Positions 18,713 to 26,568 of a stretch of DNA of 64,000 nucleotides are shown here, piece by piece. The DNA lies in the NCBI RefSeq assembly GCF_030013205.1, contig NZ_CP122648.1; one strand, given 5' to 3'. Made by a program: the position numbers and the translations under genes. The stretch comes from Escherichia coli (GTDB taxonomy: Bacteria; Pseudomonadota; Gammaproteobacteria; Enterobacterales; Enterobacteriaceae). Under the pieces are notes generated by a model, which made no database searches, was not told the DNA's origin, and worked only from the letters and a program-made list of their open reading frames with translations. The first letter of the stretch is position 1. Each line of letters begins with the position of its first letter.

Positions 18713-19012
18713 ATGGCGCTTACAAAAGCTGAAATGTCAGAATATCTGTTTGATAAGCTTGGGCTTAGCAAGCGGGATGCCAAAGAACTGGTTGAACTGT
18801 TTTTCGAAGAGATCCGTCGCGCTCTGGAAAACGGCGAACAGGTGAAACTCTCTGGTTTTGGTAACTTCGATCTGCGTGATAAGAATCAACGCCCGGGACG
18901 TAACCCGAAAACGGGCGAGGATATTCCCATTACAGCACGGCGCGTGGTGACCTTCAGACCCGGGCAGAAGTTAAAAAGCCGGGTCGAAAACGCTTCGCCC
19001 AAAGACGAGTAA
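18713..19012 (+). CDS. ihfA: Integration host factor alpha subunit
   Basis: [99 protein letters not shown]. Confidence 0.97.
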
Positions 19013-19025
19013 TCTGATCTAACTA

Positions 19026-19054
19026 AAAAGGCCGCTCTGCGGCCTTTTTTCTTT
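19026..19054 (+). terminator. ihfA terminator hairpin; also the left copy (attL core) of the island-flanking direct repeat
   Basis: aaaaaggccgctctgcggccttttttcttt; the core ggccgctctgcggccttttttcttt recurs near 36016. Confidence 0.75.
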
Positions 19055-19317
19055 CAATAACCGATTGATTTATAATGTTTTATATATCTTCGTTCCACCA
19101 TGTGTCCACATTCAGTGGAGGGAGAGGGGAGTAAGCCCGCTACATTGTGGGCTTTGTCTTATAGTCTGATCACCGTTTCAAGTCAGTAAGGACACCAAAA
19201 AGAAAACCCGCAGTTTTTACGTTGCGGGTTTGTTGTTCATGTCTGTGAGATAGGGTGCCTTATCGACCTTACCCTGGCAACCGATTGACGGGGGATTGCT
19301 CCCCCGTCGCGGTTTCC

Positions 19318-19458
19318 TTACTGCTTACACTGTAAGAACGCCGCAAACTCCGCTCCCCAGAATCTCATCCGTATTTCGCACAGCGAACCGTGCAACATCC
19401 AGATGATGAGGATTGCCGTCACGCAGAACGTGATGGCCGTAAGCGATTTTTGCGACAT
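19318..19458 (-). CDS. Hok/Gef-family type I toxin (46 aa)
   Basis: MSQKSLTAITFCVTAILIIWMLHGSLCEIRMRFWGAEFAAFLQCKQ: single TM helix then SLCEIR..R....E.AAF signature shared by Hok/Gef/HokA; below the ORF-track size cutoff; coordinates hand-derived. Confidence 0.7.
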   Translation of the reverse strand: MSQKSLTAITFCVTAILIIWMLHGSLCEIRMRFWGAEFAAFLQCKQ

Positions 19459-19612
19459 AGCACTTGCTCCTTTTCCGGAGAGGCGCTAACCTTTCACTTG
19501 TCAAGGTAATGCGGTTAGGGCCTCGGTTAAACAGAAACGTTTTCCGGGGCCTTTCCACATCTGGCCTTCGGGTATTCCCTCCGACCATCAGCCGAAAGGC
19601 ACCCGCGCGCAA
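19325..19612 (-). other. mok-like reading frame fully overlapping the hok-like ORF in another frame (probable translational-coupling frame, not an independent protein)
   Basis: 95-aa track ORF ends 7 nt from the hok-like stop and spans it, the architecture of hok/mok loci. Confidence 0.45.
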
Positions 19613-19648
19613 TCTATCTCTTTTTTGTTACTCCGGCAATTCTGCCTG

Positions 19649-19909
19649 TTAATTTTGAGGTAAGGGCAAACTCATCTGATTGTTTCCTTTGTGTGAAGCT
19701 GGCAGTTCATGCCACGGGATACCTTCTGAAGAGTGAGCGCCGGAGGCGTGTTTCGATGTGAATTTATGGAAAGCTTCCAGTGTTGAGAAGCATACACCGC
19801 ATTCTAGGTTGTTACATTGGTAATACTTTTGCCGCACGGTGTTTGAATCATTTTCCGGACGACTGGTGCGGATTCGGGCAGATGCGCCACAAAGCGGACA
19901 ACGGAACAT
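19649..19909 (-). CDS. ogr: Ogr/Delta-family zinc-finger late-gene activator (P2 Ogr-like)
   Basis: MFRCPLCGASARIRTSRPENDSNTVRQKYYQCNNLECGVCFST...: CxxC ... CxxxxC pattern and spacing of P2 Ogr. Confidence 0.8.
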   Translation of the reverse strand: MFRCPLCGASARIRTSRPENDSNTVRQKYYQCNNLECGVCFSTLEAFHKFTSKHASGAHSSEGIPWHELPASHKGNNQMSLPLPQN

Positions 19910-20119
19910 AGCGACCTCCCTTACTGTGGTGCTTCCGCTATTCTAAGTTGTACTGAAACAGATTCCAATTAACAGCTTGTCTTGTGTGAAAAGTGGAAGT
20001 TCACAATTGTGATAGCCATTACTAACGTTGTGATGTATTAGTCAACGGGAAACAAGGCATCTGTAACATATCTATGGATATGTTATATTATTGTTGCCAT
20101 AGGAAAAATCCGCTTTAAA

Positions 20120-20434
20120 GTGGTTGCTGATCATGAATATTTGTATTGGAAGATAATTGCAATGAGCGAAAGAGTGTTTGAGAAAGAACTATATTCTGAA
20201 TGGGTTATACGCAATAGTCTATATTGGATGACTCCGCTTACTCGATGGAAACTCCATGAAGACGTTTCCCACTGGATAATCTCTTTTGAAAACGATAATC
20301 CCAAATTCCTTTATGAATTCGATAGGCTGCTTAATGATTACTCTTTGCGAGAAAAGCTACAGCATAAAACAGGGGCGTTGAGAGACTCTATTGTCCATAA
20401 AGTGCTTCGCAGTGTTGATGAGAGGCTTTCATAA
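20120..20434 (+). CDS. hxsD: His-Xaa-Ser system protein HxsD (LLNDYxLRE-motif protein)
   Basis: 104-aa ORF containing ...FDRLLNDYSLREKLQHK...; stop overlaps hxsB start (TAATG); true start may be the internal ATG near 20162. Confidence 0.7.
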   Translation: MVADHEYLYWKIIAMSERVFEKELYSEWVIRNSLYWMTPLTRWKLHEDVSHWIISFENDNPKFLYEFDRLLNDYSLREKLQHKTGALRDSIVHKVLRSVDERLS

Positions 20435-21822
20435 TGGAATTGATGCCATTTAATTTTGACAGATTGCCTAATGGACAGGTGTTTATAAGCAACCTTGCAG
20501 GTTTTCATCATTTCATTGGTGAGCAAGACCTTATTGATCTTTCTGATGAGCGAATTAGTTCGGAGCAATCAAACGTGCTAGAAAGTAAGCTTTTCATAAC
20601 CAGTGAAAGCTCATCTGCTATAACTCCCTATGCTTTAAGTTCTGCTTTTGCAAAACGATTGATGAATGAACTGGCTGTCAGGCCAATTTTCATGATTGTA
20701 CCCACATTACGTTGTGACCATACATGCAAGTATTGCCAGGTTAGTAGAGCTTCTGTTAATGCCTCAGGTTACGACCTAAATCCTGAGCTCATCCCCGATA
20801 TTATTTCGGCTATTAAAAAACTATCAACGCCACCTTACAAAATAGAGATACAGGGTGGGGAGCCTCTCTTGCGGTTTGATTTAATTCAGAACATCTATGA
20901 TCAATGTGCTGAAACGCTGGGAAGAACCAATTTTGAGATGGTGGTGGCATCAAGTCTGTCTGTCTTGAATGAGGATATGATTGAATGGTCGAGAGACCGG
21001 AACATAACGTTCTCTGTGTCGCTTGATGGTGAGGAAGTTGTTCACAACAGTAATCGAATTCTTGGTCGTGGGCTTGCGTACAGTAGAACAGTGTCAGGGG
21101 TAGAGGCTATCAAACACTCTTTAGGTGCTGGCCGCGTTGCAACGGTTACTACAGTTACTAAAGAGCTTATCAGACGTCCTGAATCGATTGTTCAGGCTCA
21201 CTTGTCTCTTGGGCTCAAGGACATGTTTATCCGACCTGTTAGTCCCTATGGGTTTGCACAAAAAGCTTCTTTCACCTTTTCTATGGACGAATACTTCAGC
21301 TTCTATGCCTCGTTGATAGATGAAATCCTTAAGATTAATAATGAAGGGATAAGGGTTGTGGAACATTCGGCCTCCATTCATCTGAAAAGGATCTTCAATC
21401 CCGGTTTTAGTGGCTATGCGGATTTAAAGTCTCCAAGTGGAGTCGTGCTTAACAGTATTCTTTTCAATTATGACGGTCGAGTATATGGTAGCGATGAGAG
21501 CCGTATGTTGCAGAAGGTGAATCCTGAAACGGAGTTCAGTGCGGGTGAAGTTAAGACGCTATCATTTTCTGATAGTCCTTACTATAACGCAGTATTGACT
21601 TCATCGTTCAATTTTGCTCTGCCAGGTTGTGATACATGTGCATATCAACCATTTTGTGGTTCAGATCCATGCCAGAACATAAGTGTACAGGGTGAGCCTG
21701 TCGGCGATAGGAGTCGTTCAACGTTTTGTCAATATCACAAGGGGATGTTCAGGTATCTGATGAACTGCATCTCAGAGGGTGGTTCGAAGGCTGAGATGCT
21801 AAAAGGATGGGCATATGTCTGA
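20434..21822 (+). CDS. hxsB: Radical SAM / SPASM-type maturase, first of the pair (HxsB-like)
   Basis: 462 aa; CxxxCxxC in ...PTLRCDHTCKYCQVS...; C-terminal Cys cluster ...LPGCDTCAYQPFCGSDPCQNI...; overlaps the neighbouring genes. Confidence 0.8.
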   Translation: MELMPFNFDRLPNGQVFISNLAGFHHFIGEQDLIDLSDERISSEQSNVLESKLFITSESSSAITPYALSSAFAKRLMNELAVRPIFMIVPTLRCDHTCKYCQVSRASVNASGYDLNPELIPDIISAIKKLSTPPYKIEIQGGEPLLRFDLIQNIYDQCAETLGRTNFEMVVASSLSVLNEDMIEWSRDRNITFSVSLDGEEVVHNSNRILGRGLAYSRTVSGVEAIKHSLGAGRVATVTTVTKELIRRPESIVQAHLSLGLKDMFIRPVSPYGFAQKASFTFSMDEYFSFYASLIDEILKINNEGIRVVEHSASIHLKRIFNPGFSGYADLKSPSGVVLNSILFNYDGRVYGSDESRMLQKVNPETEFSAGEVKTLSFSDSPYYNAVLTSSFNFALPGCDTCAYQPFCGSDPCQNISVQGEPVGDRSRSTFCQYHKGMFRYLMNCISEGGSKAEMLKGWAYV

Positions 21823-22927
21823 GGTTATCAGGAACGATATCTTTCATTTTGCTTCTACAGAGAACGTGCCCACGGGGTTCTATCGGTTATGCAAACAAAA
21901 ACCAGTGAACCCTTTATTCTTTTTGCCCAATTTGCTAGTAGTTGCTGAGGGCAATAATGATGCCATTCCACCATGCTTTGATTTCTCTGTTATTAGCACT
22001 GAATTATTTGAGTCAATTGAAGATGGAGATATTGGGATAATCAACAATGGCAATATGATACGCGTTATTCTGTCACGCAAAGCCAACCATAATACTGTCT
22101 TAGTTACGGAACGCTGCAATAACTTGTGTCTGTTTTGTTCGCAGCCACCAAAGAAAATAAATGATGACTGGCTACTTACCCAATCAGCTCTTGCTATAGC
22201 TTCATTTGGCTTGAACGGAGTTGTTGGGGTCAGCGGTGGTGAACCTTTGCTATATGGGGATGACTTCCTTCACTTCATTGATTTTATCATCGAGAATTCA
22301 CCAGATACTGCTTTACATGTTTTAACAAACGGACGCAAATTTGCTGATACCAACTTTACACAGGAAATGGCAAAGCGAAGCAAAAAGATCAAAATCACCT
22401 TTGGTATCCCGCTCTACTCATCAAGACCACTTGTGCATGATCATCTGGTAGGGAGTGATGGCGCATTTAATGAAACGGTTAAAGGGTTAATCAATGCAGG
22501 AAACTTGGGGATTAATATCGAACTTAGAGTTATTCCTACACTGGCTAACTATACCGAATTGGATGATATCGTAGAATTCGCTGGCCGTGTGTTCTCCAAC
22601 ATCAATCAGATTTCCCTTATGGGGTTGGAGCCTATCGGTTGGGCACGAAAAAACTGGTCCACCATCTTCATTGATCACAGTAGTTATAGTGAGAAAATAA
22701 TCTCTGCCATAGACGCTGCATACAGGTCAGGCATACCTCTGACAATTTTTAATTATCCTTTGTGTTATCTTCCTGAAAGGGCTAGGGAGCTTGCTGTTCA
22801 GTCGATCTCTGATTGGAAAAATTACTATCCAAAAGAATGTGATGAATGTACTCAGAAGCCTTCCTGTGCTGGCTATTTCAGTTCCTCAAAAGGCCGTTTT
22901 CATCAATCACCGAGACCAATTTTATGA
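21815..22927 (+). CDS. hxsC: Radical SAM maturase, second of the pair (HxsC-like)
   Basis: 370 aa; CxxxCxxC in ...VTERCNNLCLFCSQP...; C-terminal Cys-rich ...CDECTQKPSCAGYF...; 8-nt overlap with hxsB, ATGA overlap with hxsA. Confidence 0.8.
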   Translation: MSEVIRNDIFHFASTENVPTGFYRLCKQKPVNPLFFLPNLLVVAEGNNDAIPPCFDFSVISTELFESIEDGDIGIINNGNMIRVILSRKANHNTVLVTERCNNLCLFCSQPPKKINDDWLLTQSALAIASFGLNGVVGVSGGEPLLYGDDFLHFIDFIIENSPDTALHVLTNGRKFADTNFTQEMAKRSKKIKITFGIPLYSSRPLVHDHLVGSDGAFNETVKGLINAGNLGINIELRVIPTLANYTELDDIVEFAGRVFSNINQISLMGLEPIGWARKNWSTIFIDHSSYSEKIISAIDAAYRSGIPLTIFNYPLCYLPERARELAVQSISDWKNYYPKECDECTQKPSCAGYFSSSKGRFHQSPRPIL

Positions 22928-23559
22928 AAAAGTTTAATTTTGCTGCTCTACTTCCGGGATTTTTGGCTCTCAACAATTCTGTATGGGCAAGCGATTCATC
23001 TACAGGAGCGAGTGATTTACCTGGTATGACTCTTAATGAGCATGATTTAGTGATAGCTCCACTTAACACGGAAGTCCCATTTTATATCGCAGGGCATCGA
23101 AGCCATAGTTCTCATAGGAGCCATAGCTCTCATAGATCCTCATCAGGTGGTGGATACTATGGTGGAAGTACCCCCTATTATCCAAAAACATACAGCTCAC
23201 CAAGTTCATCTGGTTCTTCAAGTTCAGGTGCAAGTTCCTCATCGTCCTCTTCCTCGGTGCGTGCACTTCGTTCTAACGATAATAATAGAACCACTAACAC
23301 GAGTTCTGTTGGAACTTCAGAGGTTAACCGTACGAGTAATGGGCTTGCTTCTGATGCAGAGAAACGTAAGCGATTGATTATGCGAGTTCAGTTCGCATTG
23401 CTGGACAGGGGATTTTATAACGGAAATATTGACGGCATAATGGGGCCATCCACAAGGCTGTCTGTGAAAAATTACCGCATTGCGAATGGATTACCGATTC
23501 CTGCAACTGAAACACTCGACGCACAATTGTTAAATTCTTTGAATATATTAGCTCGCTAA
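22924..23559 (+). CDS. hxsA: His-Xaa-Ser repeat protein (HxsA-like), secreted, with peptidoglycan-binding-like C-terminal domain
   Basis: From internal ATG of track ORF 22846..23559: MKKFNFAALLPGFLALNNSVWA (signal peptide), HRSHSSHRSHSSHRS (5 HXS repeats), Ser/Gly-rich linker, C-terminal ...RVQFALLDRGFYNGNIDGIMGPSTRLSVKNYRIANGLPIPATETLDAQLL. Confidence 0.8.
   Translation: MKKFNFAALLPGFLALNNSVWASDSSTGASDLPGMTLNEHDLVIAPLNTEVPFYIAGHRSHSSHRSHSSHRSSSGGGYYGGSTPYYPKTYSSPSSSGSSSSGASSSSSSSSVRALRSNDNNRTTNTSSVGTSEVNRTSNGLASDAEKRKRLIMRVQFALLDRGFYNGNIDGIMGPSTRLSVKNYRIANGLPIPATETLDAQLLNSLNILAR
23097..23135 (+). repeat. Short in-frame tandem DNA repeat encoding the His-Xaa-Ser units
   Basis: agccatagttctcatagg / agccatagctctcataga-like 18-nt units; coordinates approximate. 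Confidence 0.6.
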
Positions 23560-23861
23560 ATCTCAGTGAGGTATAAATAAAAAGCAATAAATTATATTAG
23601 TCGCGCGTCCATTATTGGTGGGTAAGTTCAAGGACCGTCTGCTCTGTGTCAGGGGCAGATGGTCAGATAAGACTGTGCCGTTTAGCCCGCTAGTACGTGT
23701 CTGGACTAATACATTTAAGAGTCTCATTCTGCTATCCATTCCGGGATTTTTGCCTCAAGCTCAAGCTGTGTGGTAAAGCCGCTGTTATCAATGGTGTGCT
23801 CGGCTTTTGCAATAATCCAGTCCTGATTATCAATCTCGCTTTTAAATCCTGTTACCGTGCC

Positions 23862-23869
23862 ATGCATTT
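23862..23869. repeat. Target-site duplication (left copy) of the IS66-family element
   Basis: ATGCATTT, repeated at ~26569-26576. Confidence 0.7.
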
Positions 23870-23899
23870 GTAAGCGACTCGTCAGAACCGTATTGATAT

Positions 23900-25471
23900 T
23901 TACTGAGAGCTCAGATCAACTTTCCAGGGCAACAGATCGCGTACCCGGTTTGCCGGCCAGTCCTGGATATGTTCAATGACGTAACGCAGCCACTTTTCTG
24001 GCTCCACATTGTTCAGACGGCATGTGCCGATCAGCGAGTACAACACCGCCGCATGTTCACCACCGCTGTCGGAACCCGCGAACATCCAGTTTTTCCGGCC
24101 TACGGCCACTCCCCGTAAGGCGTTCTCTGCGGTGTTGTTGTCGATTTCCACCCAGCCATTACTGCAGTACACGTTCAGTGCATCCCACTGTTTCAGCAGG
24201 TATGCGAACGCTTTTGCCGTATCTGAGTGACGCGACAGTGTTTTCATCTGTTGCTGTATCCAGTCATACAGTGACTGCATCAGTGGCGCGGCTCTGGCTT
24301 TTCTTGCCGCCAGACGCTGTTCTGCTGAACAGCCCCGGACCTCTGCCTCGATGGCATACAGTTCACCGATACGCTGCAGGGCTTCCGTGGTGATGTAGGT
24401 GGGCGCTCTTGCATGCACATCGTGGATTTTTCTCCGGGCATGAGCCATACACGCGGCTTCCGTTATTCTGCCGGATTCGTATAACGCCCGGTAACCACCG
24501 TAAGCATCGGCCTGAAGCACACCGCTGTAACCGGCCAGGTGATTTTGTGGATGGATACCTTTCCGGTCCGGACTGTACGCGAACCAGACCGCCGGGGGCA
24601 TCTGTGAACCGGCGTTACGGTCATCACGGACGTAGACCCACAGCCGGGCTGTCCGGGTTTTACCGCTGCCCGGCTCCTGGACCGGGACGGGGATATCATC
24701 AGCATGGACTTTACCGGGCATCAGCACATACTGGCGCAGGACGTCATACAGCGGCTCCAGCAGTTCAGCAACAGCACCTGTCCAGCGCCCCAGTGTGGCA
24801 CGGCTCAGCTCCACTCCCTGACGACGGTATATTTCTGACTGGCGGTATAACGGCAGATGGTCTGCATATTTCCCGGTGACAACATGGGCCAGAAGCCCCG
24901 CTCCGGCATAACTGCGTGCAATGGGTTTTGAAGGTACTGGTGCCTGTACGATATGGTCGCACCGGCAACAGGCCTGTTTCGGACGTTGTGTTTCGATAAC
25001 CTTAAAGGCGCTGCTGATAAGCTCCAGTTGCTCTGACACATCACATCCCAGAGAACTGAGTTCACCACCACAGGCAGGACAGCATTCCTCTTCCGGCCGG
25101 ATAACCCGGGTTTCACGGGGAAGTGAGGCCGGTAACGGTTTACGGGCTGAAGACTGGCGCAGGGCGGATGGCAGTACCGGGTCATATTGCTCACCCAGCG
25201 TTTCCGCCATTTCTTCCTGAAGTGCGCTGATTCGCTCCTGTGCTTCCTGTATCTGCCGTTCGGTTTTTGCACGAAGTTTTTCTGAGCTTTTACCGAACTG
25301 CATACGTTGCAGTTTCGCAACCAGCGCCTTCAGCCGGTTGATTTCGGAAGCATAAGCCGCCACCCGCTGTGAGAGCAGGCGGTTGTATTCAGCCATCTGG
25401 CGGATGGTGTCCTGTTGCGTCTGCAACAGTGCCCGCAGGCGGGCGTTCTCATGAGCAAGTGAGGTGTCCAT
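23900..25471 (-). CDS. IS66-family transposase TnpC
   Basis: 523 aa with leucine-zipper-like N-terminus, Cys cluster (CPACGG...CRCDH) and C-terminal ...[23 protein letters not shown]... typical of IS66 TnpC. Confidence 0.85.
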
Positions 25472-25490
25472 ATCCTCACTTTACAACGGG

Positions 25491-25838
25491 TTATATGCGG
25501 ATTCCAGCGCGTTCCGTTCGTTTCGGGTGCTTCCAGTTGATACCTTCAAGAAGCATGGATAACTGAGCCGGAGTAAGGTGCACCTTGCCGTCACGGGTGA
25601 CTGGCCAGACGAAGCGGCCCCGCTCCAGGCGTTTGGTGAAGAGGCACAGTCCGTCACTGTCAGCCCACAACACTTTTATCTGGTCACCCCGGCGTCCGCG
25701 GAAGATGAACAGGTGTCCGGAGAACGGGTCATCCTTCAGGACGTTCTGAACTTTTGATGCCAGGCCGTTAAAGCCATTTCGCATATCGGTGATACCTGCA
25801 ACCAGCCAGATACGCGAACCTGCAGGGAGAGATATCAT
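25491..25838 (-). CDS. IS66-family accessory protein TnpB
   Basis: 115 aa, ...RIWLVAGITDMRNGFNGLASKVQNVL... Confidence 0.8.
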   Translation of the reverse strand: MISLPAGSRIWLVAGITDMRNGFNGLASKVQNVLKDDPFSGHLFIFRGRRGDQIKVLWADSDGLCLFTKRLERGRFVWPVTRDGKVHLTPAQLSMLLEGINWKHPKRTERAGIRI

Positions 25839-26515
25839 CAGTGGCTGCTCCCTTTTATTTCGCGGATAAGTGTCTGTAATAACGCCGGCGTCAGTTTACC
25901 TTTAAGCCTGAGAGTTCCGGCCGGCAGAACCAGCTCACAACACAGACTGTCGGACGGTGTATTTATCTGCTCTGGTTCCTGTGCGGGGGCCGGGATTTTA
26001 TTATCCGGCTCCGGCGTTAACGTCACGGGAAGCAGTGCCGGCATATTTTTTCCGGAAGGCAGCAGGCCACCTTTCCGGTATTGATGGCGCCAGTTGAAGA
26101 GCAGGTTATCGTTGATTCCGTTTTCCCGGGCGATCTGCGCCACACAGGCTCCGGGCTGCAGTGACTGCTCCACTAAGGCGATTTTAAACTCATAAGGGAA
26201 GTTGGGCCGCCGGGGACGTTTTTTTACCACGGGGGCTTCGGATATAACGGTGCTTTCAGGACGTACGACTGGTACCGTGGAAAATTGTCCGTAAAGGCAG
26301 GCATCAAGTTCCTGCTCCGACATGCCTGCGGGCAAAGGCCACGAAAGGCCAGCTCTCCGAAAGCGCACGAACATACTACAAACTGTTGATTTTGGTACAC
26401 CCAGGCGACGCCCGGCCACAACCCGGGGTAAATGTTCTTCAAAGTGAAGACGTAAAGCTTCAGTGATCCAGGTCCGGTGTTTCATACGATAGTGTCCATT
26501 AAAAATGATGGACAT
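25838..26515 (-). CDS. IS66-family accessory protein TnpA (start uncertain; track ORF may be over-extended)
   Basis: ...RPRRPNFPYEFKIALVEQSLQPGACVAQIARENGINDNLLFNWRHQYRKGG... Confidence 0.65.
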   Translation of the reverse strand: MSIIFNGHYRMKHRTWITEALRLHFEEHLPRVVAGRRLGVPKSTVCSMFVRFRRAGLSWPLPAGMSEQELDACLYGQFSTVPVVRPESTVISEAPVVKKRPRRPNFPYEFKIALVEQSLQPGACVAQIARENGINDNLLFNWRHQYRKGGLLPSGKNMPALLPVTLTPEPDNKIPAPAQEPEQINTPSDSLCCELVLPAGTLRLKGKLTPALLQTLIREIKGSSH

Positions 26516-26568
26516 TATTTTTGTAGAGCCGGAGGAAACAGACCAGACGGTTTAAATGAGCCGGTTAC

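Follow-up and report, generated by a model that had tools for sequence, protein, structure and literature searches.

A probable module junction, with a predicted promoter on either side, separates an ogr-like gene from the hxs anti-phage operon in a decayed P88-like prophage of Escherichia coli

In one Escherichia coli chromosome, the anti-phage operon hxsDBCA lies back to back with a gene for an Ogr/Delta-type zinc-finger protein, and the spacer between them contains several dyad symmetries. Does this spacer act as one control region, through which the Ogr-like protein or a host regulator governs hxs, as the initial annotation had suggested, or do two modules simply meet there? We analysed a window of 64,000 nucleotides (the whole stretch taken from contig NZ_CP122648.1, in which all coordinates are given) that is 100% identical to E. 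coli K_EC180, a swine isolate. The gene order runs from the chromosomal backbone genes thrS-infC-rpmI-rplT-pheST-ihfA through hok, the ogr-like gene, and hxsDBCA to an IS66 element, a fragment of gpD, and the tape measure and other tail genes. The locus is a decayed P88-like prophage (Peduoviridae: Xuanwuvirus/Gemsvirus) downstream of ihfA, at the ihfA site, and because the sheath and tube genes are missing, it is defective. The two divergent units are as follows.

19649 to 19909, minus strand: ogr/Delta-like zinc-finger gene, 86 amino acids (Pfam PF04606 Ogr_Delta, E 8e-14, residues 3-49)
20162 to 23559, plus strand: hxsD-hxsB-hxsC-hxsA, the HXS anti-phage system (NCBIfam equivalogs, in agreement with the RefSeq annotation; published function in PMC13128918)

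The ogr-like protein carries the four cysteines of the Ogr_Delta zinc finger at positions 4, 7, 32, and 37 and is assigned to PHROG 603, transcriptional regulator. It is a family member and not an Ogr equivalog, since its score against the NCBIfam Ogr model is 43.4 bits and the cut-off is 116. The gene is 96.5 to 100% identical to the one that follows gpD in P88-like phages, and it stands downstream of gpD in P88, in phage 500465-2, and in 80 IMG/VR loci. As in P88, a hok/gef-family toxin gene (19318-19458, minus strand) lies directly downstream of it. An Rfam search of 19000-20600 gave no match in the spacer and only two sub-threshold hits elsewhere: a sok-like antisense RNA overlapping the hok/gef gene (19318-19604; RF01794, 47 bits, below the 59-bit threshold) and a partial match to the STnc540 sRNA at 19000-19110, which covers the 3' end of ihfA immediately ahead of the junction with the prophage.

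All four hxs genes exceed their NCBIfam cut-offs (hxsD, hxsB, hxsC, and hxsA score 90.6, 558, 398, and 159 bits against 50, 370, 268, and 122, respectively). HXS was reported in 2026 by Li et al. as an anti-phage system of broad range that keeps phage DNA from entering, and the window holds the same four genes in the same order, hxsD-B-C-A (PMC13128918). That report places 77% of E. coli hxs operons outside predicted prophages, whereas the copy in the window belongs to the prophage-borne minority. It mentions an "endogenous promoter" and gives no description of the promoter, leader, or flanks; the native expression signals of HXS have not been described before and are mapped here as predictions from sequence. 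For the hxs radical SAM proteins, PADLOC returned only weak matches to viperin, because its 2023 version has no HXS model.

The extent of the spacer depends on where hxsD begins. The start is almost certainly ATG 20162 and not GTG 20120: RefSeq annotates it there, and 29 of 29 homologues align from that methionine. Relatives differ within 20120-20161 by 1-2-nt indels, which rules out a coding extension from GTG 20120 and means that this stretch is non-coding. The spacer is therefore 252 bp long (19910-20161) and not about 210 bp as first described, although it is AT-rich as claimed (GC 37.6% against 48.8% for the window). For the same reason, the TATATT hexamer, which is present at 20084-20089, stands about 72 nt before the hxsD start codon, not 30 nt.

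We then searched for sequences similar to 19640-20440 and obtained two independent sets of matches. For the ogr half (ogr and 40-90 bp upstream of it), the matches are to P88-like phages and to some 1,300 E. coli genomes, and they stop at 19950, 19968, 19979, 19985, or 20001, depending on the relative. The hxs half, 19988-20440, is 84.6% identical to Klebsiella IncF plasmids, where an IS110 element lies upstream and there is no ogr. Near 20000, GC content declines from 0.47 to 0.365, and past hxsA it rises again; hxsDBCA itself has a GC content of 36-44%, compared with about 50% in the flanks. The left module, up to about 19985, is thus P88-like backbone with the ogr-like gene, its ribosome-binding site, and its promoter, and the right module, from about 19988, is the upstream DNA of hxsDBCA, which travels with hxs to Klebsiella plasmids and to genera that lack ogr. 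We also examined 29 other hxs loci (25 Enterobacterales genomes, one Klebsiella plasmid, and three other E. coli islands). The ogr-like gene is absent from all 29, and we found no regulator gene that travels with the hxs cassette. We conclude that 19910-20161 is probably the junction of two unrelated modules placed back to back, with separate histories and each with its own sigma-70-type promoter. Because each gene would have brought an ordinary promoter of its own, most of the palindromes between them are better read as incidental than as parts of a shared switch. A 47-bp piece of the right module (20037-20083, with the -35 hexamer and most of the dyad in the promoter spacer) also occurs at 97.9% identity on two E. 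coli plasmids (H165 and H166), with no annotated gene beneath it.

The place where the modules meet is itself variable among P88-like phages. In P88, ogr follows gpD after 45 bp. The same 45-bp gap is found in 34 of 80 IMG/VR relatives, and in another 45 of the 80 the gap measures 1.0-3.8 kb, with 21 other distinct lengths in that range. Our set of slot loci comprised window 19990-23720, L103-L182, L002, and L008-L010. In other phages, the cargo between gpD and ogr includes Shedu, PifA, PDC-S31, a PsyrT-like protein, GmrSD, a YecA-family protein, and several unknowns; six of ten cargo proteins tested had no PADLOC match. Among 16 representative loci, the cargo faces each way in eight. This variable and defence-rich content indicates that the gpD-ogr gap is a defence hotspot and that hxs is one of its cargoes. 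The intact arrangement free of the IS66 element is present in the IMG/VR loci L103 and L104. The IS66-family element of the window (ISCro1, 23870-26567) sits inside gpD, and the sequences to its left and right overlap by 9 bp when placed on L103, which is uninterrupted. What is annotated as a small "hypothetical" gene (23724-23867) represents the C-terminal fragment of gpD.

Defence hotspots in P2-like phages and P4 satellites have been studied before: the gpA-gpQ slot next to cos was analysed systematically by Rousset et al. in 2022, who in their introduction also refer to two variable loci of P2-like phages known from earlier work (PMC9122126). Those hotspots resemble the gpD-ogr slot in being variable, in lying between conserved phage genes, and in being filled with diverse anti-phage systems; in both cases, the cargo systems would bring their own native promoters and protect the lysogen. 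The slot described here differs in its position, between gpD and ogr rather than between gpA and gpQ, and in belonging to the Xuanwuvirus/Gemsvirus lineage. We found no earlier description of the gpD-ogr slot of P88-like phages in the papers we consulted. Autonomous promoters at a hotspot junction are an ordinary finding that would not surprise a specialist.

The boundary between the phage backbone and the hxs cassette falls at about 19986-20001, inside a short element that recurs at the edges of cargo.

19972 to 20010, plus strand: recurrent cargo-border element containing TGTGAA-N9-TTCACA at 19985-20005 (nhmmer profile match, E 3e-7)

The element is about 40 bp long and reads roughly CAGTCCGyTwTGAGCGAAnAGCGGAAGTTC. 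It occurs twice upstream of hxs on the Klebsiella plasmid (L004, 4906-4945 and 4985-5024), once in Buttiauxella (L016, 3538-3577), and beside YecA-type cargo (L127 and L008, the latter at 5367-5406); further copies lie at L185 3500-3540 and L184 3500-3539. Among the settings of the element are a genomic island and a second P2-like prophage, where its neighbour is a HEPN-domain gene close to the tail-sheath gene. In all, P2-family phages carry the element in two different slots, and plasmids and a genomic island carry it as well. Its stem covaries, with TGTGAA/TTCACA in the window and TGCGAA/TTCGCA in L127. The TGTGAA-N9-TTCACA dyad, which the initial annotation had placed correctly just upstream of the palindrome, is part of this border element and not an hxs operator.

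One reading of the element is that it is not just residual flank and serves as a recombination or capture site through which defence cassettes move among P2-family slots (gpD-ogr and the one beside the tail-sheath gene), islands, and plasmids. We regard this as quite unlikely; a capture role, if true, would explain the two element copies on the Klebsiella plasmid hxs cassettes. Terminal inverted repeats around the cargo were considered and rejected for the window, whose flanks are not similar and score below the shuffle mean. Across 22 cargo classes, a significant flanking inverted repeat was found only at the YecA-type locus L127 and is not a general feature. There, imperfect inverted repeats about 100 bp long (z = 8 against shuffles) flank the YecA-type cargo of L127 (and L008), and the octamer AACTTAGA stands on both sides of that cargo, like a target duplication; in other cargo classes, the flanking repeats and octamer are weak or absent. 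The 146-bp stretch of L004 that includes both element copies matches about 138 E. coli genomes, in one to four places each. The hotspot and the recurring element may both be of use in studying the transfer of defence cassettes among phages, plasmids, and islands.

On the phage side of the junction, the ogr-like gene has the following signals.

19915 to 19920, minus strand: Shine-Dalgarno sequence GGGAGG of the ogr-like gene (read from the sequence; nearly invariant in 80 P88-like loci)
19940 to 19968, minus strand: predicted ogr promoter (consensus scan; -35 TTGGAA at 19968-19963, 17-bp spacer, -10 TAGAAT at 19945-19940, start near 19933)

The predicted promoter lies 24 nt upstream of the strong ribosome-binding site. 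Its -10 hexamer is kept in nearly all P88-like loci, and its -35 hexamer (TTGGAA or TTGGAG) is kept in most cargo-bearing flanks.

On the other side, the hxs cassette carries a promoter and leader of its own.

20063 to 20091, plus strand: predicted hxs promoter (consensus scan; -35 GTAACA at 20063-68, 17-bp spacer, -10 TATTAT at 20086-91, start near 20098-20099)
20098 to 20161, plus strand: conserved hxs 5' leader, 64 nt (alignments; Shine-Dalgarno GGAAG at 20149-20153)
20110 to 20123, plus strand: small leader hairpin CCGCTTTAAAGTGG (two pairs with compensatory CG to UA changes)

The hexamers match the consensus at 9 of 12 positions. GTAACAT and TAT..T are invariant in 11 of 11 hxs upstream regions, which were retrieved by protein or BLAST similarity without reference to the promoter motif and which represent several sequence types, with HxsD proteins 63-87% identical to that of the window. 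Another 19 metagenome sequences were fetched with a pattern that contained the promoter motifs; because of this they add nothing to the promoter argument, and they were counted for the hairpin. An alternative promoter from the consensus scan, TTGCCA-16-TAAAGT, was rejected, as its -10 is not conserved in relatives. As the initial annotation proposed, the Ogr/Delta-type zinc-finger gene and hxsD diverge from a promoter region that lies between them, and one of the dyads in that region overlaps the credible hxs promoter.

Alignable conservation across hxs cassettes starts at GTAACAT (20063) and runs through TAT..T and the leader; in other E. coli hxs variants, similarity to the window sets in only at 20058-20061. 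Homology among these variants begins only at the -35 hexamer, which indicates that the conserved cassette contains no upstream activator site. Identity to sister cassettes is 74-83% over the upstream stretch 19988-20062 and 82-85% at whichever codon position of hxsD-hxsB is least conserved (mostly third positions of hxsB). By this comparison, the stretch shows no sign of extra constraint. A natural disruption lies within it.

20048 to 20052, no strand: IS2 target, with GGAAA duplicated, in strain ETEC4075 (L183 861-2199)

The IS2 element of ETEC4075 separates ogr and the upstream dyads from the hxs promoter, and an IS2 element lies within the ogr-hxs stretch in several other strains also. In ETEC4075, the insertion point is 11 bp before the -35 hexamer of hxs, and the element points the same way as hxs.

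Cassette types that share only about 83% identity in their coding DNA are nearly identical over the first ~35 nt of the leader. In the hairpin, 88.9% of cells are paired, and its covariation score is 0.396, compared with 0.207 in shuffles; none of the 500 shuffles came up to 0.396. Folded in full, the leader is no more stable than shuffles (z = -0.19), and support is confined to the small hairpin. These features suggest that hxs would be transcribed from its own modest promoter, with a start near 20098-99, into an mRNA that would begin with the conserved 64-nt leader and its small hairpin at 20110-23. Most likely, hxs is expressed at a low level from this predicted sigma-70 promoter, and such expression would take place in the lysogen independently of Ogr. 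HXS under its endogenous promoter defended both MG1655 and BL21, in a variant and with an upstream length that may differ from those of the window, and HxsB, HxsC, and HxsD were below western-blot detection under that promoter (PMC13128918). The predicted promoter, the leader, and a minimal cassette boundary at about 20058 can be tested directly and should help those who wish to clone HXS or to find out if it is constitutive.

The initial annotation had offered a different account, in which the adjacent Ogr-like late activator switches hxs on at prophage induction through the upstream dyad. Ogr-dependent late promoters of P2 carry TGT-N12-ACA centred near -55 and lack a -35 hexamer. The hxs region is like them in that an Ogr/Delta-family gene lies next door, divergent and adjacent, and in that a TGT...ACA dyad lies upstream: TGTGAA-N9-TTCACA can be written as TGT-N15-ACA, a looser form of the P2 box, and one TGT-N15-ACA occurs in the P/O late-promoter region of P88. 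It differs from them in the N15 spacing of that dyad, which is the only TGT...ACA dyad in 19800-20250, in the position of the dyad, whose centre lies about 103 bp ahead of the predicted hxs start and not at -55, and in the -35-like hexamer of the predicted hxs promoter. A P2-type box, TGT-N12-ACA, is absent from 19800-20250, although the P2 box may not be the one used by a P88-type Ogr-like protein. We searched the P/O and FI/D late regions of P88 for an Ogr box and found no TGT-N12-ACA and no usable motif there; the single TGT-N15-ACA in P/O corresponds to the genome-wide chance rate, and the FI/D region has none. The dyad, moreover, belongs to a border element that also occurs without ogr, as hxs itself does at all 29 other loci. 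Other cargo in the slot faces either way, and the IS2 insertion of ETEC4075 parts ogr and the dyads from hxs. With halves of separate histories, a conserved cassette that begins only at the -35 hexamer, palindrome and TTGTGAT words that are not kept in the closest sisters, and a published system active under its endogenous promoter (PMC13128918), the idea that the spacer forms one control region tied to Ogr is not supported. Control of hxs by Ogr is unlikely, and switching at prophage induction through the upstream dyad is very unlikely indeed. We read the adjacency of ogr and hxs as an accident of the gpD-ogr slot and the ogr-like gene as a bystander, which saves a misdirected experiment.

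A host regulator was the other possibility raised, and here the TTGTGAT words come into play.

20007 to 20013 and 20028 to 20034, plus strand: two TTGTGAT words, weak CRP-like matches (not kept in the closest sister cassettes)

Both words are present as reported. If the TGTGA-rich stretch 20008-20044 held class I CRP sites, hxs would be under catabolite control. The sequences TGTGATAGCCATTACT (8/10) and TGTGATGTATTAGTCA (7/10) have their centres near -83 and -62 relative to the predicted start, and both positions are allowed for class I CRP sites. These positions, however, hang on a predicted start site; the right half-sites are poor; and by our own estimate, chance should yield about 0.8 matches with at most three mismatches in 252 bp. 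The closest sisters carry degraded versions of both sites (TGGTGA..., TGCGAT..., TGCAAT...), with TTGCGAT or TTGCAAT in place of the second TTGTGAT, and neither site is present in any other cassette type. We found no conserved CRP-type TGTGA-N6-TCACA site at a class I or II position, and we consider catabolite control through this stretch highly improbable. Scans of the spacer with consensus sequences for CRP, FNR, ArcA, Fur, Zur, IHF, LexA, Lrp, CpxR, PhoP, and OmpR gave only weak, non-conserved matches. An ArcA-like 9/10 match over the hxs -10 hexamer was rejected, as it is not conserved outside the closest clade.

Two further symmetries in the spacer were assessed against chance, with 3,000 dinucleotide-preserving shuffles of its 252 bp.

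20001 to 20012, no strand: 12-bp palindrome TCACAATTGTGA, lineage-specific
20064 to 20085, no strand: 9-bp inverted repeat TAACATATC-TATG-GATATGTTA, candidate operator inside the hxs promoter spacer

The perfect 12-bp palindrome is where it had been annotated. A perfect palindrome of at least 12 bp appeared in 7.6% of the shuffles (P = 0.076). The palindrome is a 1-nt deletion variant, given that sister cassettes read TCACAATTGgTGA and TCACAATTGaTGA. On this comparison it is probably incidental, and the palindrome and the TTGTGAT words are most likely lineage-specific features without function. The second symmetry had been reported as an 8-bp inverted repeat, AACATATC-N4-GATATGTT, at 20065-20084; it is present there and in fact has 9-bp arms. 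An inverted repeat with arms of at least 9 bp and a loop of 3-12 appeared in 1.1% of the shuffles (P = 0.011), and the two symmetries together in 0.1%. Of these two, only the 9-bp repeat therefore beats chance on its own; the 12-bp palindrome does not. The 6-bp-arm dyad and the repeated 7-mers are short motifs.

Could a dimeric repressor, with its gene in the host or in another element, use the 9-bp repeat as its operator, so that HXS is conditionally repressed and not simply constitutive? Repressor operators are known in sigma-70 -35/-10 spacers. The repeat resembles them in that its perfect 9-bp arms reach across the spacer and into both hexamers, which is where a repressor classically sits, and any protein bound there would be expected to repress. 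For the window, L016, and L102, the repeat has P = 0.001-0.011 against spacer shuffles. In this closest clade, the arms are kept nearly invariant and two to three of the four loop positions vary; L004 keeps seven of eight arm positions. Cassette types L006 and L007 carry spacer dyads of different sequence, and native HXS expression is very low (PMC13128918). Arms that are better kept than the loop, in a repeat unlikely to arise by chance, hint at regulation.

Against this, the commonest hxs cassette type has no such dyad (P ~1), and unlike known repressor operators, the repeat has no cognate regulator that we could find, none accompanying the cassette, and is not conserved across hxs cassette types. 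The arms are in part constrained anyway by the -35 hexamer and a conserved TG upstream of the -10, palindromes form easily in AT-rich spacers, and the scans for CRP, FNR, ArcA, Fur, Zur, Lrp, and others gave nothing conserved. The 9-bp repeat appears to be the only plausible operator in the spacer, a candidate and not a general feature of hxs. Regulation through the promoter-spacer dyad is possible on this sequence evidence, and a repressor that makes HXS conditional strikes us as rather unlikely; we retain expression from an autonomous hxs promoter as the preferred reading.

Beyond the spacer, the hxs cassettes also differ at their downstream end. The other E. coli hxs islands carry a gene directly after hxsA, absent from the window and from the Klebsiella plasmid copy of hxs, that encodes a TIGR04141/DUF6119-family protein of about 535-545 amino acids (L005 9571-11202; L006 9498-11102; L007 9520-11127) and may be an accessory gene of hxs.
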